Shown piece by piece: positions 27,130-42,947 of a stretch of DNA of 45,764 nucleotides. The notes below the pieces were generated by a model. It did no database searches. It saw only the letters and a program-made list of their open reading frames with translations, and was not told the DNA's origin. The stretch lies in the IMG/VR virus record IMGVR_UViG_3300006052_000013. One strand, written 5' to 3'. Every line of letters begins with the position of its first letter. The stretch's first letter is position 1. This DNA is from a virus. Made by a program: the position numbers and the translations under genes.

Positions 27130-27636
27130 TTCTCCGGTTTGTTCAAAGTGCCGGATACGTTCTTTGGTAATATTGACATACTCGGTAGTCCCCGGGGTGG
27201 CATCCCGAAGTCTTCTTTCAAAAGTTTCTGGCCAGTGACCTCGGCCGTAGTTGCGATAACCCCTTAAAAGAAACAAGCGTGCCGCGGCACTCTTATCTAT
27301 GCCAAGCCATTCCGCGGCGCGGTCGGGGGTATCCGTGTGAAAGATAAAATAAGATACGTCTGTTTCTTCATCTTTAATCGGTTTAACCTGTCCCGTCATT
27401 ACCAGAATATTTCCCGCCAGGCATCCCACCGTATTACAGGGGGGAACATCATCGGCCGTCGGCGAAAATTCTGATAATATTTGAGACACTCTTTTTTTCA
27501 AAACATCGCCTTCTTTGGCCGTTACTCCCCACAAACCCATGTTGAACCGAAGTGGTTCTTTCTCGATGTACTCAATTAACTGCTCGAGTTTCGCCACGGT
27601 TTCCGGGGATGGCTTTTCGTATTGTTGGTTTTCCAA
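27127..27636 (-). CDS. hypothetical protein (169 aa)
   Basis: TTG start with an AAGGAGAGG RBS. Confidence 0.45.
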   Translation of the reverse strand: MENQQYEKPSPETVAKLEQLIEYIEKEPLRFNMGLWGVTAKEGDVLKKRVSQILSEFSPTADDVPPCNTVGCLAGNILVMTGQVKPIKDEETDVSYFIFHTDTPDRAAEWLGIDKSAAARLFLLRGYRNYGRGHWPETFERRLRDATPGTTEYVNITKERIRHFEQTGE

Positions 27637-27651
27637 ATTCCTCTCCTTGAT

Positions 27652-27695
27652 AACGGAAGATATCCGTTACACCGGGTTTCCCCGGTGCCCTCTGG
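27652..27695 (-). repeat. short cassette, double-hairpin variant
   Basis: AACGGAagatatCCGTT + CACCGGGtttCCCCGGTGccctctgg. Confidence 0.5.
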
Positions 27696-27696
27696 T

Positions 27697-28209
27697 TTAT
27701 GCCGCCTTCTTTTTGTTGGCATTCCGGACTTTGACGCGACGTTGCATCTCGGCCGAACGTTCTTCCGGAGACATTTTGTCCCAGTAACTTTTCGCCCCGA
27801 TGGCAACTTTTGATTTTCTTTTGGTTTTCGCCCATCGCAATCGCTGGGCCTGGGCAATCCGGTTCCGTGCCGACTTGGACAGACGACGTTTCAATGGTTT
27901 GTCATCATGTGAACGAACATGAATCGTCGTCGTGCCAGGGGCGATTTCATTCCCTTGGTCGGTTGCTCCCCGCATCTGGGGCAAATGTTGGGTACCGTCC
28001 AATAACTCCCCGCGCGTCTCGGCGAGAAGAAGCGTTCCCACCCAATGGGCAGCGTCGGGCGGAGTGATCGCTCCGCCTGTCTCTGCTCCGAGGGCGTTAA
28101 GCTGCGCTTTGATATCCCGGTAAAGGTAACCGAGCCGGAATGCCGCAGTTTGGAAAATGGAATGACTTTCCTTAGTGCTCCCATACTGTTTTCCTCTCCT
28201 TGGTTTCAT
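27697..28209 (-). CDS. hypothetical basic protein (170 aa)
   Basis: ATG with a GAGGA RBS; K/R-rich C-terminus. Confidence 0.5.
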   Translation of the reverse strand: MKPRRGKQYGSTKESHSIFQTAAFRLGYLYRDIKAQLNALGAETGGAITPPDAAHWVGTLLLAETRGELLDGTQHLPQMRGATDQGNEIAPGTTTIHVRSHDDKPLKRRLSKSARNRIAQAQRLRWAKTKRKSKVAIGAKSYWDKMSPEERSAEMQRRVKVRNANKKKAA

Positions 28210-28223
28210 GTTTTTATCCTCAT

Positions 28224-28271
28224 AACGGACAGTAGTCCGTTACCGTGGGTTTACCCCACGGCCCTCTGTTA
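28224..28271 (-). repeat. short cassette, double-hairpin
   Basis: AACGGACagtaGTCCGTT + accGTGGGtttaCCCCACggccctctgtta. Confidence 0.6.
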
Positions 28272-28676
28272 CGCGAGTTCATTCATTGCACTAGCTTGTT
28301 CAAAATCCGACAACGTTCCCTCGAATGTTGCTCCGCAACTGCACGAAACTTTGTAGTCTAGAGAAAAACCATAGAACATTTTCGTTCCTCTTCCCTTGCC
28401 CTCGCTTTTTGTGGCCGGTTCTAAATCTGAACCATTACCATTGACGGAGAGGTCGTGTTCATCGCCCTCGTGGTCTTCGGGTACATACCCAGGAATATCC
28501 TGAGTTGCGCTGATATTTGCATCTTTCAATTCTTCGCCGCATTCGCCGCATTTCAATATTACTCGAACATCGGCCCGGACCTCGGCCGCGATGAGGTCCA
28601 CTTCCAAATCACCTTCTAACTCAACTTCATGGGGGTCTTCATAGGGAACAAACTTATTGCAACTTGGACAACGCAT
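28269..28676 (-). CDS. acidic Zn-ribbon protein (135 aa)
   Basis: CPSC...CGEC; starts at the M that follows the long leader. Confidence 0.5.
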   Translation of the reverse strand: MRCPSCNKFVPYEDPHEVELEGDLEVDLIAAEVRADVRVILKCGECGEELKDANISATQDIPGYVPEDHEGDEHDLSVNGNGSDLEPATKSEGKGRGTKMFYGFSLDYKVSCSCGATFEGTLSDFEQASAMNELA

Positions 28677-28682
28677 TTTCCT

Positions 28683-28772
28683 CTCCTGATATGGCAACAA
28701 ATAAGCCGTTGGCTTATTTGTTGAGGTTTCCCCTCATTGCCATTACCGGCCCGTGGGCCGGCCCTCTGTTAC
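28683..28772 (-). repeat. long three-helix leader cassette (copy 1)
   Basis: ctcctgatatggcaa-[acaaataagccgttggcttatttgt]-tgaggtttcccctcattgccattacc-[ggcccgtgggccgg]-ccctctg. Confidence 0.65.
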
Positions 28773-28987
28773 TGAATACCCCGCGCCGGTGGTACGTGGT
28801 GTGCGTCCGGACGCAATACCCCCGGCGGAACTTCCATATCGGGCGGCGGCGCACATCGGTTCTGAGATAGAAGCGCCTGTTGCATAATCTCCCAGGCCTT
28901 TTCCTGTCGCCGGGCCAAAGAGAATACATACCATAGGTACAATACTCCCAGTAAAATTAACGCCAAACTTGCCAAACCTTCATTCAT
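28769..28987 (-). CDS. small membrane protein (72 aa)
   Basis: LASLALILLGVLYLWYVF transmembrane segment; internal ATG with a GGAGGGAACAACA RBS. Confidence 0.45.
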   Translation of the reverse strand: MNEGLASLALILLGVLYLWYVFSLARRQEKAWEIMQQALLSQNRCAPPPDMEVPPGVLRPDAHHVPPARGIQ

Positions 28988-28998
28988 TGTTGTTCCCT

Positions 28999-29031
28999 CC
29001 TTACCACGGGTATTACCCCGCGGCCCTCGGT
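28999..29031 (-). repeat. short cassette (inside the C-terminus of the sigma-like gene)
   Basis: cttaccacgggtattaccccgcggccctcgg. Confidence 0.5.
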
Positions 29032-30362
29032 TGTTCTTCGGTGACCGGCGCCATCCAGTGCAGTTTTCCATCCGATTCCAGGATTAATTCTTTATCTTGG
29101 CATCGACGGATGATCGAATAGGCCTGACCATTTGTGGTACCCGCGGTCATCATCTTCTGAACTAATTCGTTCTTAGGAAGAGGCCCATCGGCGAGTATCT
29201 GTTTTAAGACCGGTTCCCAATATCCTCGTGGTGAACGAGTCTGCGGGGCATTTCCATTGACCTCATCATGGGCCGTCGCATTAATCGACTTCTTTCCCGT
29301 GATAATATCGTGGGCACTTGTCAGTTGTTCAATCACCGCGGTCCACTTACGGGCCTCGGCCTCGGATTCCGCGGCCTGCCGGGTATAAAACTGTACCTTG
29401 CGATGGGCATCAGATATCAAAGACTCGATGGTCGGTGGTGATCCACTTGGTATTTGTTCCATTGTTTTCTCTCCTTGTTGTTTTAGTTGAAAGAGATAGT
29501 TTTGATGAACAATCTCTTCCTGGGTATACTGCCGAACCGGCCCCGGTGCTGTGACCGTCCGGGGGGGACGGAGATTCACGGGGGTTTTTGCCAGAAGTCC
29601 GTGCGACGTAAATATTTGATTCGGGGCACGAGGGTCGCGTCCGCTCAGATGGTAATAACTACCCAGTTCCGTTTCATTGAATCTGGACGCCCCCGCATTC
29701 CGTGAACTTCGTATTTGCGTCGGTGGTGGACTCCCGATGTGTTCCCGGGCGGCCGCGGCGACCAGTTTTTCGCGCCGCAACCTTCGTTTTTTCTTGCTCA
29801 TTGATTTGCTCATTGATTTGCTCTCCCACAACACTCGAAGATCACTCAAACCGTGTGATTGATAGGCCTTTACGGCCCCGACGGACAAATTTAAAATTCC
29901 GGCGGTTTCTTCCAAAGTTTTTTCTTCCAGAAATCTAAGAAACAACACGCGGCGCCGGCTCCTATTCAAATACGGTAACAAGCGCAAAAAATGCTCACGT
30001 GTGATCCAGGAATCTATGGTTTTATCCGGAGTATCCGGCAAATCCAGGGTGTTTCCATCTTCATTGATGGGATTATCCAAGGATACTTCTGAAAGATTGT
30101 TCTTTCTTCGTAGGTACATCAAAAATTCCCGGTGCGCAATTTGATGCAACCAGGAACTTAATTTGGCCTCACCTCGAAAATCGCCGATGGCCAGAAAGGC
30201 CTTCGTAAAGGTCACCTGGGCCAGTTCTTCCACGGCGTCTTCATTCAGTTGCCAATATTTGCGCAAAGTTTTTTTTACCCGCGATAACTGGTCACGATAT
30301 ATTTGGGAGAACGCGTCTTGATCGCCGGATTTTGCACGATCTAATAATTCTTTTTCTTCCAC
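29013..30362 (-). CDS. ECF-type sigma-70 family factor-like protein with a roughly 270-aa C-terminal extension
   Basis: Region 2: DAFSQIYRDQ...FLAIGDFRGEAKLSSWLHQIAHREFLMYLRR. Region 4: LRFLEEKTLEETAGILNLSVGAVKAYQSHGLSDLR. GTG start with an AAGGAGAA RBS. Confidence 0.6.
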   Translation of the reverse strand: MEEKELLDRAKSGDQDAFSQIYRDQLSRVKKTLRKYWQLNEDAVEELAQVTFTKAFLAIGDFRGEAKLSSWLHQIAHREFLMYLRRKNNLSEVSLDNPINEDGNTLDLPDTPDKTIDSWITREHFLRLLPYLNRSRRRVLFLRFLEEKTLEETAGILNLSVGAVKAYQSHGLSDLRVLWESKSMSKSMSKKKRRLRREKLVAAAAREHIGSPPPTQIRSSRNAGASRFNETELGSYYHLSGRDPRAPNQIFTSHGLLAKTPVNLRPPRTVTAPGPVRQYTQEEIVHQNYLFQLKQQGEKTMEQIPSGSPPTIESLISDAHRKVQFYTRQAAESEAEARKWTAVIEQLTSAHDIITGKKSINATAHDEVNGNAPQTRSPRGYWEPVLKQILADGPLPKNELVQKMMTAGTTNGQAYSIIRRCQDKELILESDGKLHWMAPVTEEQPRAAG

Positions 30363-30384
30363 TTACGTTCTCCTTTGATATTTA

Positions 30385-30417
30385 CTTACCGGGGAAATAT
30401 ATCCCCCGGCCCTCGTT
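30385..30417 (-). repeat. short cassette
   Basis: cttaccGGGGgaaatatatCCCCCggccctcgtt. Confidence 0.6.
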
Positions 30418-30430
30418 TTTACCACTACTT

Positions 30431-30601
30431 TTACACTTTCAAAACGGGATTTTCGTCCATCACCGCACGCTCGGCCAGAAACCCCGCCGCGGTGGCGGTG
30501 ATTTCTATCTCGCGGTGCCGATCCCGCACGGTGATTGTGCGGCCATTTAATAATTCTCGCAATTCTTTTTCTCCGAGTTCTACTTTAATTGGCTCTTTCA
30601 T
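30431..30601 (-). CDS. hypothetical protein (56 aa)
   Basis: Starts at the M after the long leader (...QERNM). Confidence 0.45.
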   Translation of the reverse strand: MKEPIKVELGEKELRELLNGRTITVRDRHREIEITATAAGFLAERAVMDENPVLKV

Positions 30602-30607
30602 GTTCCT

Positions 30608-30697
30608 CTCCTGGTATGGCAAACATTGCGGCGAAGCCGCATGTTTGAGGTTTCCCCTCATTGCCATTACCGTGGATTTACCCACGGCCCTCTGAGT
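30608..30697 (-). repeat. long three-helix leader cassette (copy 2)
   Basis: ctcctggtatggcaa-[acattgcggcgaagccgcatgttt]-gaggtttcccctcattgccattacc-[gtggatttacccac]-ggccctctg. Confidence 0.65.
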
Positions 30698-30714
30698 TAC
30701 TAGGAATGGGCTTA

Positions 30715-30906
30715 TTAGGCAAACTGATAATCACTTTTTTTTGCTCGAAAGCCCTTTTTCTTGAGAAGACTGGCATCCCACCCCGTGATATCCTTCACGT
30801 CCTTTACGGCATACTCCCAGGCCTCGCTGGCAGATGTTCCGGGGCGATGATACAAAACTACCCCTTCTCGATCTACCAACATCCAAACCCGATCTAATTC
30901 TGGCAT
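30715..30906 (-). CDS. hypothetical protein (63 aa)
   Basis: Internal ATG with an AGGAGGG RBS. Confidence 0.45.
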   Translation of the reverse strand: MPELDRVWMLVDREGVVLYHRPGTSASEAWEYAVKDVKDITGWDASLLKKKGFRAKKSDYQFA

Positions 30907-30921
30907 GCTTTCCCTCCTGTT

Positions 30922-30956
30922 CATTAACGCGGCAGGTTCGCCGCGTCCCTCTGTTA
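30922..30956 (-). repeat. short cassette variant (no CTTACC)
   Basis: taaCGCGGCaggttcGCCGCGtccctctgtta. Confidence 0.45.
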
Positions 30957-32057
30957 TTGTTTGACCAAATAACTTGTATCAACATCTACGTCTTCCCCGT
31001 TTCTCGACAACCGAGTTTGGTGCGAAATCAAGGAAAGATTTTCTTGAAAACTTGCAAGTTTGGGAACCGCCGTCCGTCCGATCATTGCAATGTAACCCCG
31101 ACCCCGCCAGGGTGGCATGTGATTTCTGGACAAACGTTCGACGATGGTTCGATAGTACAACATGCGATTGGTAAAGGACTCCGGGGCACCGGGTACGGGC
31201 GGCGTAAAGCTGATCTGAATATAATCAGTCCAACTTTTATCTGCGCCCGAGGCCCGCAGTTTGTACCGGGCCAGGGCGCCCGCGAAGTACCGCGCCAACT
31301 TGACATTGGCCGCGAACTCCGTAATGCCCGGTTCCCAGGCCCGATACCGTCGACGGTAATACTCCCGTTGCTCCGTGGGAATTTCCCCAGACCAACCCAA
31401 GTCCTGCAATTTTGCCCAAGACTTGGATTTATTCCGGTCATAACCCGGTTGGTCACTATCCACCAGATACTCGTACATGGCATCTTGTATCTGGTCGGCC
31501 AGGGCAAAGTAGGCCTCATAGGTAGTCAGATGTTTTTCCCGGACCGGATTCACAAAATGAAGATTTAGAATCCGAACCAAGGCCGACAAACCCTGTGAGT
31601 ACTCTTCCACCATTTCTGCTCCGACTGGGCCATCTTCTTGGTAGAGATACTCCGCGTTGATATCTTCAACACGAAGATTAAACTGGATAGATGGTGTGAA
31701 GACTTCCCGAACCTGCCGGTAAAGGCAGGCGAGTTGTTTCAGTGCCATGACCTCGGCCACATCCAGAATGGCCCCCGTCTTGGCCTTTCGGCCGCCCCAG
31801 GGAACCAGCACCGGAATTGCCTTACCCAGTTCGAGACTCTGCCGGATGACCGCCCGAATTGTCACCAGTGCCTCGGGTTTCGGGATCGGACCATAACGAT
31901 TCTGGTTCGTTCCCAAGAGAATACCGGTGATAATCTCGAGCAATGATTGTTTTGGAGGAGCCGCGGCGACGGGAAACTCCCGCCACAGAAACTCATCAAT
32001 CAAAGACGAGTAGGGATCGTCCACGGGTGATGTAACTTGGTACGTTGCTGTACTCAT
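30954..32057 (-). CDS. hypothetical protein (367 aa)
   Basis: Starts at the M after the long leader. Confidence 0.5.
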   Translation of the reverse strand: MSTATYQVTSPVDDPYSSLIDEFLWREFPVAAAPPKQSLLEIITGILLGTNQNRYGPIPKPEALVTIRAVIRQSLELGKAIPVLVPWGGRKAKTGAILDVAEVMALKQLACLYRQVREVFTPSIQFNLRVEDINAEYLYQEDGPVGAEMVEEYSQGLSALVRILNLHFVNPVREKHLTTYEAYFALADQIQDAMYEYLVDSDQPGYDRNKSKSWAKLQDLGWSGEIPTEQREYYRRRYRAWEPGITEFAANVKLARYFAGALARYKLRASGADKSWTDYIQISFTPPVPGAPESFTNRMLYYRTIVERLSRNHMPPWRGRGYIAMIGRTAVPKLASFQENLSLISHQTRLSRNGEDVDVDTSYLVKQ

Positions 32058-32062
32058 GTTCC

Positions 32063-32157
32063 TCTCCTGGTATGGCAAACCAAGAGACGAAGTCTCTTGG
32101 TTCTGAGGTTTCCCCTCATTAACCATACTTACCGTGGTTTCCCACGGCCCTCGTCAT
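32063..32157 (-). repeat. long three-helix leader cassette (copy 3)
   Basis: ctcctggtatggcaa-[accaagagacgaagtctcttggtt]-ctgaggtttcccctcattaaccatacttacc-[gtggtttcccac]-ggccctcg. Confidence 0.65.
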
Positions 32158-32215
32158 ATCTCTAAATCTTGGAATGGCATTACATGAATATCTCTAAATC
32201 TTGGAATGGCATTAC
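32146..32215. repeat. tandem duplication (34 bp x2)
   Basis: tctctaaatcttggaatggcattacatgaata appears twice. Confidence 0.6.
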
Positions 32216-32419
32216 ATGAATACCTCCCTGGAAGTGACCCATGAACACGATGGAATGATGAAACGGGTACTTAACCTTTAACAAATTTCTGTACCGTTCA
32301 ATTTTTGTTCCGATGGTCATTCCACTTTCAGAGGCGTCGTCCGGTCCTACTTCGACGATTGCCAGATTGTTCATGTAATCTTCATTGGAATGGTGGTTGA
32401 TAACGTAGATTAGTTTCAT
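32180..32419 (-). CDS. hypothetical protein (79 aa)
   Basis: Starts at the M after the long leader. Confidence 0.45.
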   Translation of the reverse strand: MKLIYVINHHSNEDYMNNLAIVEVGPDDASESGMTIGTKIERYRNLLKVKYPFHHSIVFMGHFQGGIHVMPFQDLEIFM

Positions 32420-32424
32420 GTTCC

Positions 32425-32536
32425 TCTCCTGGTACAGCAACAAGAGACGGTTTAAGTTTCTTGTTTGGGATTTTTTCCCGGCTGTACTTACCGCGGGTTT
32501 CCCCGCGGCCCTCGTATCACTGCGAGAATCGCAGAG
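32425..32536 (-). repeat. long leader cassette (copy 4, variant) plus a trailing hairpin
   Basis: ctcctggtacagcaa-[caagagacggtttaagtttcttg]-...cttaccGCGGGtttcCCCGCggccctcgtatcaCTGCGAgaaTCGCAGag. Confidence 0.6.
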
Positions 32537-32550
32537 ATATGTTTTTATTT

Positions 32551-32709
32551 TTACTGCGCCGCCACGGCGCTCGCCGCACTTGAAAAAACGTTATTGGAAT
32601 TGCTTCCAATCAGGCGAACCGTACCGACGACGATTACCAGAATTACCGCCAGCATCACGGCGTATTCTGCGATATCTTGCCCTTCTTCGGACTTCCACAG
32701 TGTTTTCAT
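32551..32709 (-). CDS. Flp/Fap-type pilin-like peptide (52 aa)
   Basis: MKTLWKSEEGQDIAEYAVMLAVILVIVVG resembles the Flp pilin motif G-x-x-A-I-E-Y-(A/G)-L-I; RBS AAGGAG. Confidence 0.5.
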   Translation of the reverse strand: MKTLWKSEEGQDIAEYAVMLAVILVIVVGTVRLIGSNSNNVFSSAASAVAAQ

Positions 32710-32720
32710 TGTTTTCTCCT

Positions 32721-32828
32721 TTAGTGAACTTGCCGATACAACAACCACAACAAAAAAAACCACGCGGTTGCGGAGATATCAAACCAGGTAAACCCCATGA
32801 AGACGGGGTGCAAGTTAAATGGCCACAT
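32721..32828 (-). CDS. small hydrophobic peptide (35 aa, MWPFNLHPVFMGFTWFDISATAWFFLLWLLYRQVH)
   Basis: ATG with a GGAGGA RBS just after a cassette element. Confidence 0.3.
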   Translation of the reverse strand: MWPFNLHPVFMGFTWFDISATAWFFLLWLLYRQVH

Positions 32829-32848
32829 ATCGCGCGTCCTCCTTTCAA

Positions 32849-32894
32849 GTCAATGGGGAGATTGACTTACCGTGGTTTCCCACGGCCCTCGTTA
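32849..32894 (-). repeat. short cassette, double-hairpin
   Basis: GTCAATggggagATTGAC + ttaccGTGGtttcCCACggccctcgtta. Confidence 0.6.
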
Positions 32895-33014
32895 ACGAAC
32901 CACGCTATAAACCAGATTAACATTGTCGCCGATTAGGTGGCGACTGCCGATGATAATGATTACGACGACCGCCAGTACTACTACGTACTCTCCGAGTTGT
33001 TTAAGTTTGTTCAT
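32892..33014 (-). CDS. Flp-pilin-like peptide (40 aa, MNKLKQLGEYVVVLAVVVIIIIG...)
   Basis: GEYVVVLAVVVIII follows the Flp-like pattern; RBS GGAGGAAACA. Confidence 0.4.
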   Translation of the reverse strand: MNKLKQLGEYVVVLAVVVIIIIGSRHLIGDNVNLVYSVVR

Positions 33015-33028
33015 TGTTTCCTCCGGTA

Positions 33029-33059
33029 CTTACCGGCCCAGATGGGCCGGCCCTCGTCA
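33029..33059 (-). repeat. short cassette
   Basis: cttaccGGCCCAgatgGGGCCggccctcgtca. Confidence 0.6.
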
Positions 33060-33272
33060 CGCAGTAATAGGTTCCAGGGTAACCTTGAAACCCTTGAGGT
33101 CCCCGAGTTCAGAGATACCCAGTTCTTTCATCGCCTCCAGACGGTTGACGTAGATGTTGGTGAGTACGCCGGACTGATCCTTGGGAAGGCTGTATTTGAC
33201 TGCTCCCTTCTTGGGATCAACCACGCGCAGCTCTACGGTTACCGTCTTGGCCTTTGGTTTTTCGGGTGCCAT
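33057..33272 (-). CDS. hypothetical protein (71 aa)
   Basis: Internal ATG with a GGAGAGGAAAAAT RBS. Confidence 0.45.
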   Translation of the reverse strand: MAPEKPKAKTVTVELRVVDPKKGAVKYSLPKDQSGVLTNIYVNRLEAMKELGISELGDLKGFKVTLEPITA

Positions 33273-33301
33273 ATTTTTCCTCTCCACTTTTAAGGTCACC
33301 G

Positions 33302-33376
33302 CCGGATTCGTGCCCCCGGCTTGTGCCTTACCGTGGGTTTCCCCACGGCCCTCGTATCACTGCGATAATCGCAGAG
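33302..33376 (-). repeat. short cassette with flanking hairpins
   Basis: CCGGattcgtgccCCCGG ... cttaccGTGGGtttccCCACggccctcgtatcaCTGCGAtaaTCGCAGag (the tail duplicates 32507-32536). Confidence 0.6.
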
Positions 33377-33391
33377 ATATGTTTTGAGTTT

Positions 33392-33604
33392 CTATTCACC
33401 ACCGTTGAAAGCACCGTCGGCGAGTAAATCGCAGGCGATGTCCATCGACTTGACGACGACCGCGGTCAGTGTTAATGCCTCGTGTCGCAAAAGAAAAGCG
33501 GCCACGATCAAAATCACTAACACGATCAGTTTAAACCACATACTGTGGTAAACCCGCCAAAATCTATTCTTGGCCCGGAGACGGCTTTGTCGTCTTCGGT
33601 TCAT
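33392..33604 (-). CDS. small membrane protein (70 aa)
   Basis: KLIVLVILIVAAFLL transmembrane segment. Confidence 0.4.
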   Translation of the reverse strand: MNRRRQSRLRAKNRFWRVYHSMWFKLIVLVILIVAAFLLRHEALTLTAVVVKSMDIACDLLADGAFNGGE

Positions 33605-33606
33605 TG

Positions 33607-33747
33607 ATTTATACTCGTGCGCCGCCGGCGATGGCAACTGATGCCACCCCACCCAGAAACGCAAGTTCAATCAGCAACCGATACACGTCATGAGAAACAT
33701 ACCACATGATCGCGTCTTGCAGACGTTTGACCACTTTGTCTCGGGAC
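33607..33747 (-). CDS. small membrane protein (46 aa, MSRDKVVKRLQDAIMWYVSHDVYRLLIELAFLGGVASVAIAGGARV)
   Basis: ATG with a GGAGAGGAACAAT RBS. Confidence 0.35.
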
Positions 33748-33775
33748 ATATTGTTCCTCTCCTAATAAGGCTCAC

Positions 33776-33838
33776 TCCGGTTTTCGTGCCCCCGGATGGT
33801 GGCCTTACGGGTCACCGGAGTGACCCGCCTTCGGGGAA
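33776..33838 (-). repeat. cassette variant
   Basis: CCGGttttcgtgcccCCGG...ccttacGGGTCACcggaGTGACCCgccttcgggg. Confidence 0.45.
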
Positions 33839-33843
33839 ACAAC

Positions 33844-34059
33844 TTAGGCGGCCTGGTTCAAATCGTACCGGGCCAAATCATGCTGGTTTGCATGGTGAAC
33901 CTTTTCGGCCCACTTTACGGCGACGGCCGAGGTTAGATAGTTGGTTTCTTCGACCGATCCGTCTGAGTGTTCCAGAATAATACGATCGGCGGCCTCGATG
34001 GCCTTGTTGATTGCTTCTTGACGACGCATATCGCGATTGTTGATACTATCCGTGATCAT
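33844..34059 (-). CDS. hypothetical protein (71 aa)
   Basis: RBS AAGGAGAGGAAA. Confidence 0.45.
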   Translation of the reverse strand: MITDSINNRDMRRQEAINKAIEAADRIILEHSDGSVEETNYLTSAVAVKWAEKVHHANQHDLARYDLNQAA

Positions 34060-34063
34060 TTTC

Positions 34064-34115
34064 CTCTCCTTACAAGGCTCACTCTATTGTGGCCTTACCG
34101 TGGGTTTTCCCCACG
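34064..34115 (-). repeat. short cassette
   Basis: aaggctcactctattgtggccttaccGTGGGttttccCCACggccctcgtta. Confidence 0.6.
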
Positions 34116-34122
34116 GCCCTCG

Positions 34123-34380
34123 TTATATTTGTAGTGGTTTATTTTCGTTGAGACTGCGAGTAACCGCCGCCCAGGAAAATTCCAGACGCATTTCCCGTAC
34201 CTGGGGCACGTCCAGATTCATATGGGAGTAAACGGAAACTACGCAATAATCTAACATTCGACCAGAAGTAACGGCAGTAAGAATGACCCGTGGGCCAACC
34301 TGGAGTTTGACCATGGGTAATTCTTTTTTGACCTTTTCCTCGGTCCATTCCGGATTGGGTGTCGATTTTGCTTTTTTCAT
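34123..34380 (-). CDS. hypothetical protein (85 aa)
   Basis: Internal ATG with a GGGGAGGAATGG RBS. Confidence 0.45.
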   Translation of the reverse strand: MKKAKSTPNPEWTEEKVKKELPMVKLQVGPRVILTAVTSGRMLDYCVVSVYSHMNLDVPQVREMRLEFSWAAVTRSLNENKPLQI

Positions 34381-34601
34381 ACCTTTACCATTCCTCCCCA
34401 AGACCGTTGATAAAATACCCGGAACCCGGCGGTTTGAACATCGATCACCGCGCGACGCCTCGCGGTCTCACCCGGAAAGATGAGGTACTTAAACGGCCCC
34501 GCCTCGGTGGTACCGTACGTAATCGTCGGATGAATCACCCGTCGTATTTCGTCGAATTCGCTCTTTTTGACGGCGAACTCAGGCTGATTTGGTCTTGGCA
34601 T
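34377..34601 (-). CDS. hypothetical protein (74 aa)
   Basis: Internal ATG with an AGGAGG RBS. Confidence 0.45.
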   Translation of the reverse strand: MPRPNQPEFAVKKSEFDEIRRVIHPTITYGTTEAGPFKYLIFPGETARRRAVIDVQTAGFRVFYQRSWGGMVKV

Positions 34602-34797
34602 ACCGGGCCTCCTGAATGGTCCCATTTTCGATGACCTTTTTGATCAGACTAGTTTCAAATCCACTTAACTGGAAGCCAAATGGATTGGGCGCCGAACCCT
34701 TTTGTCCGGTCAGTAACCATGTACGATATGCCCTCGCATACCGCCGTTGATTACAAGGTAATCGATGAATGTAATCATCAATAATTTTGTTTTGCAT
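34579..34797 (-). CDS. hypothetical protein (72 aa)
   Basis: Starts at the M after the long leader. Confidence 0.45.
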   Translation of the reverse strand: MQNKIIDDYIHRLPCNQRRYARAYRTWLLTGQKGSAPNPFGFQLSGFETSLIKKVIENGTIQEARYAKTKSA

Positions 34798-34803
34798 ATT
34801 CCT

Positions 34804-34897
34804 CTCCTGGTATGGCAGTGTCGACGGCGGAGGCCGTCGCACTCTGAGGTTTCCCTCTGCCACACTTACCGTGGAAGTTATCCCACGGCCCTCGTTC
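34804..34897 (-). repeat. long three-helix leader cassette (copy 5)
   Basis: ctcctggtatggca-[gtgtcgacggcggaggccgtcgcac]-tctgaggtttccctctgccacacttacc-[gtggaagttatcccac]-ggccctcg. Confidence 0.65.
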
Positions 34898-35123
34898 AAA
34901 TACGTTCTACCAGAAAAGGTTCGCCCAAAAACTGGCCATCCTCGAAGGGCGCCACGTTAAATTCAGAACCACACTTAGAACATTTTATGTTTTGACTTAA
35001 CCCACCCCGTCGTCCTTGAAAAAATGTGTCGTTATTACAGTCTGGACAAACGTGACGGTTGGCAATGGCATCAAAAACTGGATCAACAACGGGTGCTTTT
35101 TTCTTACGAAATGGGTTCCACAT
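34896..35123 (-). CDS. Zn-ribbon protein (75 aa)
   Basis: CPDC...CSKC. Confidence 0.5.
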   Translation of the reverse strand: MWNPFRKKKAPVVDPVFDAIANRHVCPDCNNDTFFQGRRGGLSQNIKCSKCGSEFNVAPFEDGQFLGEPFLVERI

Positions 35124-35143
35124 CTTTGTCGTTCTCCTTTGTA

Positions 35144-35175
35144 CTTACCACGGGTTACCCCCGTGGCCCTCGTTA
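35144..35175 (-). repeat. short cassette
   Basis: cttaccACGGGttacccCCGTggccctcgtta. Confidence 0.6.
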
Positions 35176-35296
35176 GTGACGCGTTATAAACCATTGAACC
35201 ATCAAGATGACCCCGGTAATCGAAAACCCAACGATTACCGCCCCAATCATCGTGGCGATCCAACCATGTTGAGGCTCCTCTTCGTCATTGTTTTTC
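35173..35296 (-). CDS. small membrane peptide (41 aa)
   Basis: MKNNDEEEPQHGWIATMIGAVIVGFSITGVILMVQWFITRH. Confidence 0.3.
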
Positions 35297-35467
35297 ATCT
35301 CTGGTCGCCTTATGATAGGCGCGAACCCGAACAGAATGAACAAAATTTGACATCGGTTCTTTTTTAGAATCTGTTTGGCGAAAGCAAAATTCATTAGACC
35401 CGGCCCGGCAACGAGGGCAGGGGATTAAAATAATGCGATCCCGACTGGCGGGTTTTACTCTTGGCAT
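35285..35467 (-). CDS. small Zn-finger protein (60 aa)
   Basis: CPRC...C; RBS AAGGAGAAAACA. Confidence 0.4.
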   Translation of the reverse strand: MPRVKPASRDRIILIPCPRCRAGSNEFCFRQTDSKKEPMSNFVHSVRVRAYHKATRDEKQ

Positions 35468-35483
35468 TGTTTTCTCCTTTGTA

Positions 35484-35517
35484 CTTACCGGCCCATGACT
35501 GGGCCGGCCCTCGTTTA
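35484..35517 (-). repeat. short cassette
   Basis: cttaccGGCCCAtgacTGGGCCggccctcgttta. Confidence 0.6.
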
Positions 35518-35533
35518 CCACATTATGAATTAT

Positions 35534-35824
35534 TCATGCCGCCCGCTTTGGCATGACTTTTAAGACTCCCCGCCGTTTGGCAAGATCGAACAGTTGGTAG
35601 TGAATTGCCTGTTCGACGGGCATCGTCGTCGCCAATTTACCCTGGCGTTTAACCTCGGCGATGACCTCGCCACTCGTGGCCTTTTTGAGTTTCTTAATGG
35701 CCAATACGGTGGCGCCGGCGTGGGTATGGGGTTTTAATTTGGTGATATCCACCTTCGGTTTTGCAACCAGCGCGTAAAACTGTCGTCCCGTTGCAGACTG
35801 CACGGGCTTCTTTTGACTTTTCAT
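35534..35824 (-). CDS. lysine-rich histone-like DNA-binding protein (paralog of the gene at 25754-26164)
   Basis: GRQFYALVAKPKV...HAGATVLAIKKL...VIAEVKRQGKL aligns with GRKLYSLVAGVKL...HPGAVVHALRKL...VIVEVEKQGKI. Confidence 0.55.
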   Translation of the reverse strand: MKSQKKPVQSATGRQFYALVAKPKVDITKLKPHTHAGATVLAIKKLKKATSGEVIAEVKRQGKLATTMPVEQAIHYQLFDLAKRRGVLKVMPKRAA

Positions 35825-35859
35825 TTGAATCTCTCCTATCACGAACAAATTTGCTTCCA

Positions 35860-35913
35860 ACGCACGGCCTGGAGGGACGAGTGCGTTACCACGGTTTCCC
35901 GTGGCCCTCTGTT
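35860..35913 (-). repeat. short cassette, double-hairpin
   Basis: CGCACggcctggagggacgaGTGCG + ttaccACGGtttcCCGTggccctctgtta. Confidence 0.55.
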
Positions 35914-36178
35914 ATTGAACAGTAATCGGAATAAACCCCGCCGATCGTAGGCAGGACGCACAACTGACCGAGAAGTGATATATTTGTCTTTTTGGGTCGG
36001 TTTCTTCAGGACAACTCTTGCAACTGATTACGCCCATGGAAGTTTCGGTGGCCGGCTCAAAAAACTCCACGTCGCCGGGGTTACCGACATGTTCACATAC
36101 CAAATAACCTGCTTCCCGAACCTCCGGATATTTTTCACATCCGACGATCGGGTATACATCAATATTATCTACTGTCAT
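35912..36178 (-). CDS. Cys-rich hypothetical protein (88 aa)
   Basis: ORF with an RBS. Confidence 0.5.
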   Translation of the reverse strand: MTVDNIDVYPIVGCEKYPEVREAGYLVCEHVGNPGDVEFFEPATETSMGVISCKSCPEETDPKRQIYHFSVSCASCLRSAGFIPITVQ

Positions 36179-36195
36179 TGTTTCTCCTTTATTTG

Positions 36196-36230
36196 GTCGT
36201 AACGCCGGGGATCACCCGGCGCCCTCTGAA
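36196..36230 (-). repeat. short cassette variant
   Basis: taaCGCCGGGgatcaCCCGGCGccctctgaa. Confidence 0.45.
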
Positions 36231-36384
36231 TATTCTTCCTCTGTCATCTCTTCATCAAGATCAATAAACTCGACGGTGTATTTCATCCCTTTAGAATATT
36301 TCTCTGGAATTAAAGACTCCGCCAAAAGAACCGCCTGGGTGCGGTTTTCTGCCTCCAGTACAGTTTCGTACTTGACCCGCCATC

Positions 36385-36627
36385 TCATGCCACCCTCCGG
36401 CCGTTTTCCACCAATTCATACTTGTAACGATATCGAACGAACTGGTAGAAAAAACGACCCTTGGAATGTGCCCGTTGAAAGCGGCCGAAGGTCAGGGGAC
36501 CTACGCCAAAGTAACGATACATGCGGCCGGTCAGGAATCTTACGTACAGAATCCGCCGCAGCACGTCATATCCGATACTTTGGATATTGGTCGAATCTAC
36601 CTCGATCATTCCCACTTGTGTTGTCAT
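36385..36627 (-). CDS. KTSC-domain protein
   Basis: SIGYDVLRRILYVRFLTGRMYRYFGVGPLTFGRFQRAHSKGRFFYQFVRYRY. Confidence 0.55.
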   Translation of the reverse strand: MTTQVGMIEVDSTNIQSIGYDVLRRILYVRFLTGRMYRYFGVGPLTFGRFQRAHSKGRFFYQFVRYRYKYELVENGRRVA

Positions 36628-36636
36628 ATTTCCCTC

Positions 36637-36667
36637 CTTAAACCCCCTCAGAGGGGGTTCCCTCGCC
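36637..36667 (-). repeat. cassette variant
   Basis: cttaaaCCCCCTCagaGGGGGttccctcgcc. Confidence 0.4.
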
Positions 36668-36884
36668 TTTCCATCTTGATCATTCCGTACATAATCATCG
36701 CCAGTCCCATGGCCACGACTTCCTCCGGCCGGGGGTAACTTTCAACATGTTTCACCATGGCCGTGGTGAGCGGTATATTCGGCGACACACCCTTTTTAGC
36801 CAGGCGTGTGCGCAGTTCATTTAGGGAGATGACTCCTAGTTCTTCCAATCTTTTCTTGGTTTTTTCTACATTTTGTCGGTTCAT
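36648..36884 (-). CDS. hypothetical protein (78 aa)
   Basis: Internal ATG with an AAGGAGAGAAT RBS. Confidence 0.45.
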   Translation of the reverse strand: MNRQNVEKTKKRLEELGVISLNELRTRLAKKGVSPNIPLTTAMVKHVESYPRPEEVVAMGLAMIMYGMIKMERRGNPL

Positions 36885-36903
36885 TTGAAATTCTCTCCTT
36901 GTA

Positions 36904-36934
36904 CTTACCACGGATTTCTCCGTGGCCCTCGTTA
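36904..36934 (-). repeat. short cassette
   Basis: cttaccACGGAtttctCCGTggccctcgtta. Confidence 0.6.
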
Positions 36935-36953
36935 TCAGGGACACTACATCTTG

Positions 36954-37364
36954 TTAAATGGGTTCGATTTTATTGACCTCATCCCATTTCAGGCCCAAAA
37001 CGTGAAAGGCCATCCGGGCGTGATAACCAAAATGGTTATCCCCCGTGGTGACTATCCGTTTGCGGAGTTCCAGCTTATCTGCCGTATCGGAGGTACTAGA
37101 TAAACAACTGGCCTGATTACCGTTCTCCCATAGGCCAAGACGGCCTCGGATTACCTCGGTCGTCGCCCATTTGGCATCATGGTCGCTGATGCCATTTTGC
37201 GAGTTCTGTTCATCCGGACCGCGCAACGCCGAAAGAACCCACCATAGGGCCTTCCCCTGTGATATTTTGTAGAGATTGTCGCCACCCCGGTCTAGTACAT
37301 CCGTCGGTGACGAATTTTTGTTGATTTCTTTGGCAATCTCCCGCAGCAATTCAATCCATTTCAT
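36954..37364 (-). CDS. hypothetical protein (136 aa)
   Basis: RBS AGGAGAGGAATTAAC. Confidence 0.5.
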   Translation of the reverse strand: MKWIELLREIAKEINKNSSPTDVLDRGGDNLYKISQGKALWWVLSALRGPDEQNSQNGISDHDAKWATTEVIRGRLGLWENGNQASCLSSTSDTADKLELRKRIVTTGDNHFGYHARMAFHVLGLKWDEVNKIEPI

Positions 37365-37398
37365 GTTAATTCCTCTCCTATTTAAAGATTTGATTGGT

Positions 37399-37431
37399 CT
37401 TACGGGTCACCGAAGTGACCCACCCTCGTTA
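37399..37431 (-). repeat. short cassette (GGTCACCgaaGTGACC subtype)
   Basis: cttacGGGTCACcgaaGTGACCCaccctcgtta. Confidence 0.6.
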
Positions 37432-38991
37432 GTCGTTCTGTTTTTCTTTGTACTCCATAGACCGCACGATGACCCCGAACAACAGGTCGCCCAGGCGGTG
37501 CAACATACCCGGAATCACGATCGCGTTGGGGTTGTGGGAGGTTCCCAGAAGGGCGCCAAACCCAAAGTAACCTTTGTGCAACCGGAGTTCCGGGTCGGCC
37601 AGTCCGGGAGACTTTTGAATTTCTCCGTCGTAGTCGTATTGCATTTCATTGTGCCGGAAACTGCAACCGAAGTTCACCAGATCGTCGGGGCGATTCTCAT
37701 AACCGGTCAGGTTATAAAACTCATCCACTTTGGTTTCGGTCTGGGAACGACCCCGCCGGATCACAAAGTCTTTTATGATCCGGTCCCACCCGGTGACATC
37801 TGACACGATGCGCCCCGTCCGCAGTGCCCGGTAGTAATCGGCCCGGTTCTGGGGAAGATCGCCCTCGTAATCTACCAGGTTCGAGGCAGAAAGATCACGA
37901 AATACCCGGTACTTCGTGTTTTTTTGGATGATGTAATCATCCGGATTAAATACGGAGTCCTTGGGATAGTGGGTCAATACCGAATAATCGGTATCAATTC
38001 CTCGATCCTGGGCATCGTGAAGTTGCCGGAGCATCTCGGCGGTAGAGTTTCCCAGGCCAATAAAGAGAAATTTCTTTCCCTTAATTTGCGGGTAAGTGAG
38101 GCGCTTTTGCCAACGGTTACCGGCGTGGGTGACCTCCGCAGATGTCACCATACGGTGGCGATCCGAGAGGTTTTTCGGTTTTCCCAGTCCCAGGCAGTTG
38201 ATGACGATGGGGTACTCCTTAAAACTTTGACCACGGTCATAAACCCCGTGGGCAAGATTGTTCGGAGTAACCGTGGTGACGTCGTTGGTGATAACGTTTA
38301 ATGAATTGGCGTTCTGGATATTTTGCAGAAAATCCCGTACCTCCGATCCTTCGCCGGGCGCCGGTTCCAGGGCATACTCGCCCAGGACCAATCTACGAGG
38401 ATTGTTTCGACTCCCGCCTTTGATATCTTCCCGTGACCAGATTCCAAATGGTTTGCCCTTTTCATAAAGAGTTACATTTTTAAATCCGGTGCGACTCAGG
38501 CCATATCGTACAATTTGGCCCGCCGCCCCACCACCGATGATGGCAATGGGTGTGTTCCCAATGTCCAAATTGATCACGTTATAAAACGTGGACAAACGTC
38601 CGGCGATACCACTCCCAAAAAAATTATTGGAAGTATTTACCGGAGAGACGGCCAAGGCGCGATCAATTACTTGATTTTGCTCGGGCGTTCCCCGGTAAGT
38701 AACACAGTCGGCGGGTTTCGAGAACAACGAAACTTCACCCAAATAATCCAACACCGGAAATTTTTGGTATATTTCATCTCCGGAAACATTACGCAAGACG
38801 TAACTTCCCAGAAACTTTCCCAGCATTTTCCGACGGCCCATTTCAACAATGGCCTGGTTACTCCAACCTTTATCGCGCGTCATACGTTTTAACACGGATA
38901 TCGGATTGGATAACATTATTGGACTAACGACGTTGTACGACTTCATCGCTTCAACTGCCAAGAACGACTTCAACATTTCTTGGTGATTCAT
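37429..38991 (-). CDS. FAD/NAD(P)-binding oxidoreductase (flavin monooxygenase-like, 520 aa)
   Basis: Two Rossmann motifs: IAIIGGGAAGQIV and FLFIGLGNSTAEM. The chosen start has an AGGAGAAGAACAA RBS. Confidence 0.55.
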   Translation of the reverse strand: MNHQEMLKSFLAVEAMKSYNVVSPIMLSNPISVLKRMTRDKGWSNQAIVEMGRRKMLGKFLGSYVLRNVSGDEIYQKFPVLDYLGEVSLFSKPADCVTYRGTPEQNQVIDRALAVSPVNTSNNFFGSGIAGRLSTFYNVINLDIGNTPIAIIGGGAAGQIVRYGLSRTGFKNVTLYEKGKPFGIWSREDIKGGSRNNPRRLVLGEYALEPAPGEGSEVRDFLQNIQNANSLNVITNDVTTVTPNNLAHGVYDRGQSFKEYPIVINCLGLGKPKNLSDRHRMVTSAEVTHAGNRWQKRLTYPQIKGKKFLFIGLGNSTAEMLRQLHDAQDRGIDTDYSVLTHYPKDSVFNPDDYIIQKNTKYRVFRDLSASNLVDYEGDLPQNRADYYRALRTGRIVSDVTGWDRIIKDFVIRRGRSQTETKVDEFYNLTGYENRPDDLVNFGCSFRHNEMQYDYDGEIQKSPGLADPELRLHKGYFGFGALLGTSHNPNAIVIPGMLHRLGDLLFGVIVRSMEYKEKQND

Positions 38992-39025
38992 TTGTTCTTC
39001 TCCTGTATAAGCCCGATTCATCGGA

Positions 39026-39060
39026 CTTACACCCCCGTTTCCGGGGATGCCCTCGTATCA
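39026..39060 (-). repeat. short cassette
   Basis: cttacaCCCCCGgtttCCGGGGatgccctcgtatca. Confidence 0.55.
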
Positions 39061-39303
39061 CTAAGGAACAAACTGGTACCAAAGAAGTGTCCCCGGTGGA
39101 TAGGGAACCTCCTCGTGTTTTTGTTTCGTGAACCAGATGGCAACCCGTTCCAGATCGGCGTCTGATGCGAGTGCCTCGGTATACTTGGTCTCACCGTCCG
39201 ATTGCAGATTTTCCTTTACAAAGTTATACTGCCGGATATCTGCGAGGGAGGCCTCGACCAGGGCGGTTTCTTTGTCGCCTTTGATAATCAATCGTATTGA
39301 CAT
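39061..39303 (-). CDS. hypothetical protein (80 aa)
   Basis: ORF with an RBS. Confidence 0.5.
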   Translation of the reverse strand: MSIRLIIKGDKETALVEASLADIRQYNFVKENLQSDGETKYTEALASDADLERVAIWFTKQKHEEVPYPPGTLLWYQFVP

Positions 39304-39304
39304 G

Positions 39305-39499
39305 TTATCCTCTCGTTTTTACCGGTTTGTGCGGGAAGTGAGAGTGACCGTGAGTACTTTTTGGCCAACTTGCCACCGCCGAACGGTGATGTCCCCTGCT
39401 ACCGCGGGAGGACGCCTCGGCGGGACGCGCAAGCCACGAAAAAAGTAGCAACAGTAACAGCAGCGGCCAAAGTGGCGCCAAATTCCTTACGATGTTCAT
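39305..39499 (-). CDS. small secreted or membrane protein (64 aa)
   Basis: LAPLWPLLLLLLLFSWLARPAEA looks like a signal peptide; starts after the long leader. Confidence 0.45.
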   Translation of the reverse strand: MNIVRNLAPLWPLLLLLLLFSWLARPAEASSRGSRGHHRSAVASWPKSTHGHSHFPHKPVKTRG

Positions 39500-39507
39500 A
39501 TGTTCCT

Positions 39508-39595
39508 CTCCTGGTATGGCAAACTGAACGGGTACCGTTCAGTTCTGAGGTTTTCCCTCATTGCCATTACCGGACTTATCGTCCGACCCTCTGTG
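39508..39595 (-). repeat. long three-helix leader cassette (copy 6)
   Basis: ctcctggtatggcaa-[actgaacgggtaccgttcagtt]-ctgaggttttccctcattgccattacc-[ggacttatcgtcc]-gaccctctg. Confidence 0.65.
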
Positions 39596-39928
39596 CTACC
39601 GTGTTAAACCCACGGAAGAGTTTTTATTTAGGTGAAAAGCCCGAAGGCAATCTTCCAAGGTTTGTCTCAAACCATCATAGGCGGCCTTTTTGAGCGTCTC
39701 ATCATACGTCTTGATAAAATCCCGGTACTCATCCTCGGTCCACCCAGTCCAGTTGTCGACCGCCTCGTCAAGAACCCCTTCCATATCTTCCTGGTTGTAG
39801 TTCATACGGTGTGACCAAACGAGAGTTTCAGACATGGCCTGCGTTGCCGAGATGGCCCCGATGAAGGCCTCATCCCGGTCAGTTAATTGATCCAAAATGT
39901 TTACTGTCTCGTCAGTCAATACCGACAT
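39596..39928 (-). CDS. hypothetical acidic protein (110 aa)
   Basis: ORF with an RBS. Confidence 0.5.
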   Translation of the reverse strand: MSVLTDETVNILDQLTDRDEAFIGAISATQAMSETLVWSHRMNYNQEDMEGVLDEAVDNWTGWTEDEYRDFIKTYDETLKKAAYDGLRQTLEDCLRAFHLNKNSSVGLTR

Positions 39929-39942
39929 ATTGTTCTCCTTTT

Positions 39943-39986
39943 AGTCCATATTTGGACTTACCGCCCAAGGTGGGCGGCCCTCATTG
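39943..39986 (-). repeat. short cassette, double-hairpin
   Basis: AGTCCAtatttGGACT + taccGCCCAaggtgGGCGgccctcattg. Confidence 0.55.
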
Positions 39987-39987
39987 C

Positions 39988-40113
39988 TTACTGCCCCGGC
40001 CCCGACGGAATCGTCAACGCGGCCTCCAGGATGATGAATACACCGGCCATTGCCGCGATAAACAACGCCGTCCAGATATGTTTACGGAACGTCCGCCAAA
40101 TTTGTTTACGCAT
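39988..40113 (-). CDS. small membrane peptide (41 aa, MRKQIWRTFRKHIWTALFIAAMAGVFIILEAALTIPSGPGQ)
   Basis: ATG with a GTGGAGA RBS. Confidence 0.3.
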   Translation of the reverse strand: MRKQIWRTFRKHIWTALFIAAMAGVFIILEAALTIPSGPGQ

Positions 40114-40315: not shown

Positions 40316-40325
40316 TGGTTCTCCT

Positions 40326-40633: not shown

Positions 40634-40648
40634 CGTTATCTCCTTTGC

Positions 40649-40678: not shown

Positions 40679-40679
40679 A

Positions 40680-40916: not shown

Positions 40917-40929
40917 GTTTTTCTCCTGT

Positions 40930-42942: not shown

Positions 42943-42947
42943 ATTCC

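Follow-up and report, generated by a model that had tools for sequence, protein, structure and literature searches.

The phage sigma factors gp28 of SPO1 and gp55 of T4 direct core polymerase to genes of a later class. Another phage sigma factor, gp36 of phiEco32, is of the extracytoplasmic function (ECF)-like kind, with sigma-2-like and sigma-4-like domains, and takes host core RNA polymerase (RNAP) for the middle and late genes after early transcription has been driven by sigma-70 (PMC12276001). Among ECF sigma factors, several groups (ECF41, ECF42, ECF238, and others) combine the sigma-2 and sigma-4 core with an extension of more than 50 amino acids (aa) and have no adjacent anti-sigma factor; the classification, which left out phage ECFs, distinguishes SnoaL-like, TPR, Cys-rich, DUF1835, and transmembrane extension types (PMC7826278). 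The analysis reported here of IMG/VR virus record IMGVR_UViG_3300006052_000013, a stretch of 45,764 nucleotides (nt; the window) that encodes a 449-aa protein in the open reading frame (ORF) 29013–30362, indicates that this ORF, judged by its profile matches, is a genuine phage ECF-type (group 4) sigma factor. The sigma part is covalently joined to an otherwise free-standing winged-helix protein, an architecture that is absent from the listed extension types.

A first-pass annotation, made from the DNA letters, had recognized sigma-70 regions 2 and 4 in the N-terminal part of the protein and had proposed a check against Pfam, in which both regions scored above the curated thresholds: Sigma70_r2 (PF04542) matches aa 22–88 with 41.8 bits (cut-off 24), Sigma70_r4_2 (PF08281) matches aa 125–172 with 33.8 bits against 25.7, and Sigma70_r4 (PF04545) scores 31.3 bits against 24.1, the two region 4 models together covering aa 125–176. 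Neither region 1.1 nor region 3 was found in the ORF, the Pfam matches at E ≤ 1 being confined to region 2, region 4, and ECF models. The NCBIfam model TIGR02937 (sigma70-ECF) is matched with 76 bits (cut-off 42.9), none of the NCBIfam equivalog cut-offs is reached (best SigY, 83 against 194 bits), and PHROG 1740, annotated as RNA polymerase sigma factor, matches with E = 3.6e-18. In a phmmer search of PDB chains, Escherichia coli sigma-E (1or7) aligns with the sigma part from end to end (aa 3–166, E = 3e-11), followed by SigW (5wuq, E = 1e-10), and the nearest cellular relatives in a word-indexed homologue search are plain ECFs of about 195 aa with 31–33% identity. The AlphaFold model of the 449-aa protein, built on a 58-sequence alignment, is confident for sigma-2 (aa 3–87) and sigma-4 (aa 122–180), with a predicted local distance difference test (pLDDT) of 86–96, and shows the linker between them (aa 91–114) as disordered and the final helix of region 4 continuing as a basic helix to aa 209. 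The ORF begins with GTG, preceded by AGGAGA 6 nt on the 5′ side. Because the identical protein is found unchanged on three contigs from three different samples, the fusion is not an artefact of a single assembly. At the junction of region 4 and the extension, the 12-nt tandem repeat encoding SKSMSKSMSK, which had been described as two copies at 29790–29825, is real, its extent being 29794–29823 with 2.5 copies.

The C-terminal extension comprises 264 aa (aa 186–449). It had been taken for a domain of about 270 aa of unknown function; the long extension is real, but it is not an orphan, belonging instead to a family of about 40 phage proteins. An exhaustive phmmer search of 1.84 billion representatives gave 42 matches to aa 186–449 at E ≤ 1e-3, of which 39, query included, were aligned as one family, three long repetitive proteins being set aside. 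All but two of these 39 members are free-standing proteins of 139–359 aa; the exceptions are the query itself and P0002 (440 aa), the only other sigma fusion, which is 31% identical to the query (E = 2e-54) and colinear with it through the sigma part, the linker, the long helix, and the winged helix. The family homology starts directly after sigma-4 with a basic stretch and an LGSPxPT motif, followed by a YSxExIxHxNYL helix, a Gly-Glu-Lys-x-Met motif, the long helix, and the terminal domain, and aa 186–300 are homologous to the N-terminal parts of the stand-alone members. No match for aa 186–449 was found in Pfam, NCBIfam, or PHROG, nor was there a Pfam match for the family members; a sequence profile search of the PDB with the family gave nothing significant, and a BFVD search added no name. 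The full protein returned only itself in the word-indexed search and nothing in IMG/VR, while the family profile added one further member to the word-indexed results; a genome scan with the tail profile gave nothing and no clue to the host, and two family alignments were too diverse for locus searches.

The terminal domain is modeled with the topology helix-helix-helix-strand-strand, and the Foldseek matches to it are winged helices only (among them Z-alpha, BlaI, DtxR, MarR/PadR, and SelB winged helices), with a root-mean-square deviation of about 2 Å over 55–60 residues and E ≥ 0.07 throughout; the searches of PDB and BFVD together likewise gave generic winged-helix matches only, all with E ≥ 0.01. 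In this model, the winged-helix fold class is clear, whereas the specific family is not. One stand-alone homologue, on the IMG/VR contig L012, lies after RusA and a methylase fragment and before a small membrane protein, a place that matches the position occupied by late-gene regulators in lambdoid phages; no sigma gene occurs in the 16.8 kb around it. Most other stand-alone contexts are contigs of 1–6 kb with hypothetical genes only.

All genes of the window are on the minus strand, with an early array at 27–44 kb and replication and nucleotide-metabolism genes at 1–25 kb; PHROG identifies DNA polymerase, helicases, primase, thymidylate synthase, and RNA ligase among the phage proteins, and a lysozyme gene and large convergent genes lie beyond the left end of the window. 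The early array is headed by a sigma-70-type promoter and a 1.4-kb non-coding leader, and no convincing minus-strand terminator was found over the ~18 kb between this promoter (45300–45272) and the intrinsic terminator at 27009–26986. Counted from the 3′ end of this ~18-kb unit, the sigma gene comes fifth. The gene just downstream of it (28769–28987, minus strand) encodes 72 aa with an N-terminal hydrophobic segment, has no Pfam match, and is unlike a classical anti-sigma domain.

The placement of the sigma gene within the early-gene array, overlapping the next of its repeated boxes, was described correctly at first pass; the array itself, then given as about 30 identical boxes, is real but consists of 35 boxes whose stems differ. 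All 35 are on the gene strand and are made up of GAGGG (GAAGG in one case), a G+C-rich variable hairpin of 6–9 bp, and an invariant UAA, with G and U as the usual next nucleotides. The pattern GAGGG-N14–22-TAAG occurs 27 times, always on the minus strand, as against 2.46 expected and at most 9 in shuffled sequences. The stems contain 257 pairs, comprising 244 Watson–Crick pairs, 13 G·U pairs, and no mismatch; the outer six stem positions are fully paired in 35 of 35 boxes (shuffle mean 5.1, maximum 12), and the commonest loop is GAAA. The 2-nt flanks (P2) also pair and covary (AC..GU, CA..UG, CC..GG) in 28 of 35 boxes, compared with a maximum of 24 in 5000 shuffle trials. The contigs of this phage do not differ from one another at all (100% identity), which left no orthologous covariation to draw on; the relative L003 has a box in the equivalent position, spanning the stop codon of its sigma gene, with a completely different stem. 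Most upstream ORFs end 4–5 nt before GAGGG, which accounts for the AAC that precedes it. The sigma ORF ends with CCG AGG GCC GCG GGG TAA, whose five sense codons coincide with GAGGG and the 5′ arm of the hairpin, while TAA, the stop codon (29013–29015), falls in the loop; the proposal that a cassette provides the end of the ORF stands as to the overlap, with five codons and the stop codon supplied rather than seven codons. The motif is absent outside the array, with no box upstream of the leader, and a search of IMG/VR with the box pattern returned five single-copy chance matches without hairpins.

In seven leaders, here termed class B, the 3′ flank of the box (GUA or AUG) forms the start of a helix whose other strand ends 2 nt before CAGGAGAGGAA, with two hairpins lying between the strands; this closing helix covaries, one G·U pair included, and all seven fold alike with z-scores of −4 to −6. 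The resulting three-way junction, which follows the boxes at 28766, 30692, 32152, 32513, 34893, 39591, and 43033 (minus strand), has as its arms a conserved hairpin, UGAGG-GGAAA-CCUCA, and a variable 10-bp hairpin, and was recovered by single-sequence folds, not by RNAalifold on a MAFFT alignment. Nothing was found in IMG/VR with the class-B leader pattern. A small gene has at its 3′ end a 32-nt tandem repeat (32156–32226, 2.2 copies, 97% matches) that directly abuts the box at 32152, and a 122-nt leader after the box at 42034 contains the T-arm-like GGTTCGATTCC (~41990–42025, minus strand) in a closed folded domain, in which ARAGORN calls no tRNA.

It had also been suggested that the boxes are the cognate promoters of the sigma factor. 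On this account, GAGGGC would serve as the −35 and TAAGTA as the −10 element, and the sigma factor would autoregulate its own gene and drive all the array genes, which we consider extremely improbable. The two conserved blocks do have a modal separation of 17 nt, but the distance ranges over 15–20 nt, too variable for an ECF −35/−10 pair, and what would be the spacer is the covarying hairpin with its 13 G·U pairs, absence of mismatches, and frequent GAAA loops. ECF sigmas are typically autoregulated, a box does lie upstream of the sigma gene, and the confinement of the motif to the array would suit a dedicated promoter; however, the boxes come after stop codons, none stands before the first gene of the array, and what comes after the last one (27124) is a structured non-coding element and then a terminator, not a gene. 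AAGTA loosely resembles the AATGTA of the phiEco32 gp36 promoters (PMC12276001), yet TAAGTA(C) directly abuts the Shine–Dalgarno sequence in 13 boxes, where transcription starting 7–9 nt downstream of TAAGTAC would therefore lose the ribosome-binding site. The 3′ flank, moreover, takes part in the covarying RNA helices of the seven class-B leaders, the covariation of the 2-bp P2 exceeds that of any shuffle, and the boxes match positions 1–36 of the Rfam twister-P5 model. Since tolerance of G·U on the sense strand and frequent GAAA loops are an RNA signature, the boxes are taken to be RNA elements.

A permissive Rfam scan of the array gave eight matches, seven of them to Twister-P5 (RF02684), the consensus of which reads cGCAGAGgG-ccggggcc-gaaa-ggccccgg-UAAUGCgGCAagacCGGUCcCAAGCCCGg. 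The matched part comprises P2, the GAGGG/UAA internal loop, and P1, and the boxes score 23–29.7 bits, below the gathering threshold of 37.6. The P4 loop UCCCAAGC, which forms the pseudoknots T1 and T2, does not occur between any of the 35 boxes and the next start codon, 13 boxes having at most 23 nt to that codon. Only two P4-type loops exist on the minus strand, both in the leader. A complete type-P5 twister ends 33 nt before the first array gene and consists of P2 (GCA/UGC), GAGGG, an 8-bp P1, UAA, GC, a large P3 insertion closed by GUGG/CCAC, and P4, CCAG[UCCCAAGC]CUGG; its score of 30.0 bits (E = 0.008) falls short of the threshold of 37.6, a shortfall probably due to the long insertions in P1 and P3. 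A degenerate twister copy without P1, with the loop UCCCAAGU (orphan, 44605), lies 580 nt further upstream (44594–44632, minus strand), and no twister matches were found elsewhere in the window or its upstream flank. The boxes thus look like twister-derived RNA modules without a pseudoknot partner.

Twister ribozymes are cleaved at a U-A step (PMC8495972), and the biological role of those in bacteria and phages is still open (PMC6765202). It is conceivable, though in our view quite improbable, that a twister has been split in nature here, with the 35 boxes as its substrate halves and cleavage at U|AA helped in trans. The help would come from the P4-loop module of the leader (44020, UCCCAAGC, or the orphan at 44605, UCCCAAGU) or from a protein, and the early operon, the sigma mRNA included, would be cut into mRNAs of one gene each, bearing a 5′-OH and ending 3′ in a hairpin. 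In a sub-variant, the winged-helix tail of the sigma factor would recognize the box RNA, as SelB winged helices bind SECIS hairpins, and sigma activity would be tied to operon processing. The T2 nucleotides, however, vary among the boxes (AC in 11, GC in 4, and CC in 8 of 35), and a trans contact of five base pairs would be weak. Several other assignments of the boxes were rejected: N4-type hairpin promoters, for which G·U pairs on the sense strand would leave A·C mismatches on the template strand; attC sites, CRISPR-like repeats, and nut sites, which either need an invariant sequence, the boxes keeping only structure, or are single-copy; RNase III sites, the box stems being just 6–9 bp; and a K-turn, which would require a 3-nt bulge and a G·A/A·G register, neither of them present.

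Table 1 Positions in the window of the sigma gene, its parts, and the surrounding operon elements.
Feature	Positions	Strand	Description or basis
ORF, 449 aa	29013–30362	−	ECF-type sigma factor (predicted) joined to C-terminal winged-helix module
Sigma region 2, aa 3–88	30099–30356	−	PF04542 match; AlphaFold helices 3–87, pLDDT 86–95
Sigma region 4, aa 122–180	29823–29999	−	PF08281 and PF04545 matches; AlphaFold pLDDT 90–96
12-nt tandem repeat	29794–29823	.	2.5 copies, 100% matches; encodes SKSMSKSMSK, region 4/extension junction
Extension, first part, aa 186–300	29463–29807	−	Basic helix KKKRRLRREKLVAAAARE, disordered stretch, conserved helix YTQEEIVHQNYLF
In-frame AAGGAGAG then ATG (Met301)	29460–29476	−	Possible second start, 149-aa coiled-helix and winged-helix product
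Long helix, aa 312–355	29298–29429	−	Near-invariant A, K, E, and W residues
C-terminal winged helix, aa 382–436	29055–29219	−	AlphaFold pLDDT 90–98; Foldseek
Box upstream of sigma gene	30384–30416	−	Twister-like: AC-GAGGG-P1-UAA-GU
Box overlapping sigma ORF 3′ end	28999–29030	−	Twister-like; stop codon in P1 loop
Array of 35 boxes	27099–43702	−	One after most genes
Complete type-P5 twister	44009–44139	−	Just upstream of first array gene; alignment and fold
Sigma-70-type promoter TTTTCA-17-TATAAT	45272–45300	−	Head of 1.4-kb non-coding leader
Intrinsic terminator	26986–27009	−	10-bp stem and T run; ends unit containing sigma gene

Taken as a whole, the locus is best explained, and on balance we think somewhat probably, by a functional phage ECF-type sigma factor that redirects host RNAP and carries a winged-helix tail, in an operon whose boxes are RNA modules. 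The redirection of host RNAP to another gene class had been offered earlier as the alternative to the promoter function of the boxes, and it would fit the position of the gene. In the predicted sequence of events, the host sigma-70 RNAP would transcribe the sigma gene as a promoter-distal gene, so that the protein accumulates after the products of the first early genes; by analogy with other phage sigmas, it would then bind host core RNAP and redirect it to later phage promoters, of the replication or the late genes. The winged-helix tail may add a nucleic-acid contact or a control on sigma activity, and initiation at Met301 may yield a second, shorter product. The boxes would be places where the operon transcript is processed or its stability is set, one of them supplying the stop codon and the 3′ hairpin of the sigma mRNA.

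Several observations weigh against this explanation. Target promoters were not found: upstream of the non-array (middle and late) genes, a motif search gave only Shine–Dalgarno words, and no site of the ECF consensus GGAAC-N15–18-CGT/GTC occurs in non-coding DNA, the searches covering the available sequence, beyond which the start of the late operon lies. In L003, a TATAAT stands 7 nt before the ATG of the sigma gene, at the position of the box 3′ flank, which leaves some room for a promoter reading of this one site; only 13 nt of upstream sequence are available there. No recognizable anti-sigma factor or anti-sigma domain is encoded among the neighbouring genes. As for the tail, the full-length AlphaFold model has a predicted template modelling score of 0.35 and no confident contact between tail and sigma part, its paired alignment consisting of two sequences only, and no sigma gene adjoins the stand-alone homologues in the four contexts examined, so that the functional link between the two halves is carried by the two fusions alone.

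The role of the tail is also where other explanations of the protein diverge. That the C-terminal module regulates sigma activity in cis, as the extensions of ECF41 and ECF42 do, instead of binding nucleic acid is, in our view, unlikely. The lack of an anti-sigma domain next to the sigma gene would suit such a regulator, but the module is independent in most of the 39 aligned members and lacks an adjoining sigma gene in four contexts, it ends in a winged helix, a fold that usually binds DNA or RNA, it does not pack on sigma-2 or sigma-4 in the model, and it is none of the SnoaL-like, TPR, Cys-rich, DUF1835, or transmembrane types. A shorter second product from Met301, which the sequence around this codon may allow, leads to a further reading, namely that the long ORF gives rise to two working proteins, a sigma factor of ~185–300 aa and a winged-helix protein of 149 aa, by initiation at Met301 and/or proteolysis, the fusion itself being without function. 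We judge this distinctly unlikely. The AAGGAGAG-N6-ATG at Met301 stands in a context like that of other gene starts, being grouped with other start regions of the phage by the repeat family D12; P0002 retains GGGAGAG-N9-ATG at the equivalent site, and the shortest family members (139–144 aa) have their N-termini at the Met301 point. The Shine–Dalgarno-like sequence is, however, also imposed by the conserved Gly-Glu-Lys residues, and in two phages with proteins of only 31% identity the halves are joined without an intervening stop codon. In addition, aa 186–300 are themselves conserved and, because they are homologous to stand-alone N-terminal parts, place the junction at aa 186, not at aa 301. 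That the sigma factor acts mainly on host genes, for example on stress or dormancy programmes, and not on phage genes appears very improbable: the failure to find a phage promoter motif and the ordinary ECFs of ~195 aa and 31–33% identity as nearest cellular relatives are compatible with it, whereas the phage appears to be of a lytic type, with early array, terminators, replication module, and convergent late genes in a temporal layout.

Other elements were noted along the genome. After the last box, a structured non-coding element (26986–27090, minus strand; fold z-score −7.9) is followed by the intrinsic terminator; its loop CUCUCC is complementary to the phage Shine–Dalgarno sequence GGAGAGG, so that the element may be an anti-Shine–Dalgarno small RNA. 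A 25-nt core of it is identical in the only relative (L003, 1370–1470), and a metagenome scan with a 20-nt core of this non-coding RNA gave one unrelated contig. Between a second intrinsic terminator (~25690–25725, minus strand) and the replication module come seven copies of the hexamer ATCAGT, as read on the gene strand, and A+T-rich DNA; the region 25639–25725 may be regulatory for the next gene class. A sigma-70-type promoter, TTGACA-17-TACTAT, lies within the replication module (~1097–1125, minus strand), and upstream of the array (L013, 3850–5080) two copies of AAAAATAATTTTAAAT are followed by TTGACT or TTGCCT, forming canonical sigma-70-type promoters; the host therefore probably uses standard −35/−10 promoters. 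The 14-nt tandem repeat GCCCCGGCGCGGTT (3.3 copies, 45719–45764; L013 ~9860) is the point at which one contig diverges, suggesting variation in copy number between samples. An 86-bp stretch is present at 22650–22735 and at L013 5126–5210 with 95% identity, inverted and ~27 kb apart in the genome. Pfam matches further identify genes for an Acb2/Tad1-hairpin protein of the anti-CBASS/Thoeris sponge family (22283–22669), a T4-type RNA ligase 1 (22670–23818), and an 851-aa protein with an MVP-shoulder domain (18149–20704), all on the minus strand.

The sigma factor described here is worth comparing with the known systems. Like phiEco32 gp36, it is a phage sigma with sigma-2-like and sigma-4-like domains; the likeness considered here is that of the general sigma fold, and gp36 differs in having no long C-terminal module, a separate partner protein (gp79), and defined promoters (AATGTA centred at −11.5). 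As in ECF41 and ECF42, more than 50 aa (264 aa here) follow sigma-4 and the neighbouring genes lack anti-sigma domains, whereas the order of helix, disordered stretch, long helix, and winged helix, and the homology to free-standing phage proteins, set this extension apart from those of ECF41, ECF42, and ECF238. E. coli sigma-E and Bacillus subtilis SigW or SigY are the best solved-structure and NCBIfam matches to the whole sigma part, from which, in contrast, the protein is distinguished by scores far under the equivalog cut-offs and by an identity of only ~31–33% to cellular ECFs. The fusion, read as a Rosetta-stone hint, suggests RNA polymerase as the site of action of the phage family (about 40 representatives), whose members may be late-gene regulators, and it offers a compact sigma-plus-effector unit for study. 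The boxes share with the type-P5 twister (RF02684) the P2, the GAGGG/UAA loop, the P1 hairpin, and the U-A step, but all 35 lack P4, and so both pseudoknots in cis, and their P2 is of only 2 bp. The RNase III sites of the T7 early operon and the PeSL cassettes of T4-type phages are repeated hairpin-bearing intercistronic elements of phage early regions, which punctuate the polycistronic transcript or flank small accessory genes. The boxes differ from them in carrying the conserved core of a self-cleaving ribozyme, in being too short for an RNase III substrate, and in containing no sigma-70 promoter. A phage operon that is punctuated 35 times by the half of a twister ribozyme that holds the catalytic site and has a complete twister at its head, seemingly the more important feature of this locus, represents a concrete and testable example in which ribozymes may process a polycistronic transcript or ribozyme fragments may have been put to new use.

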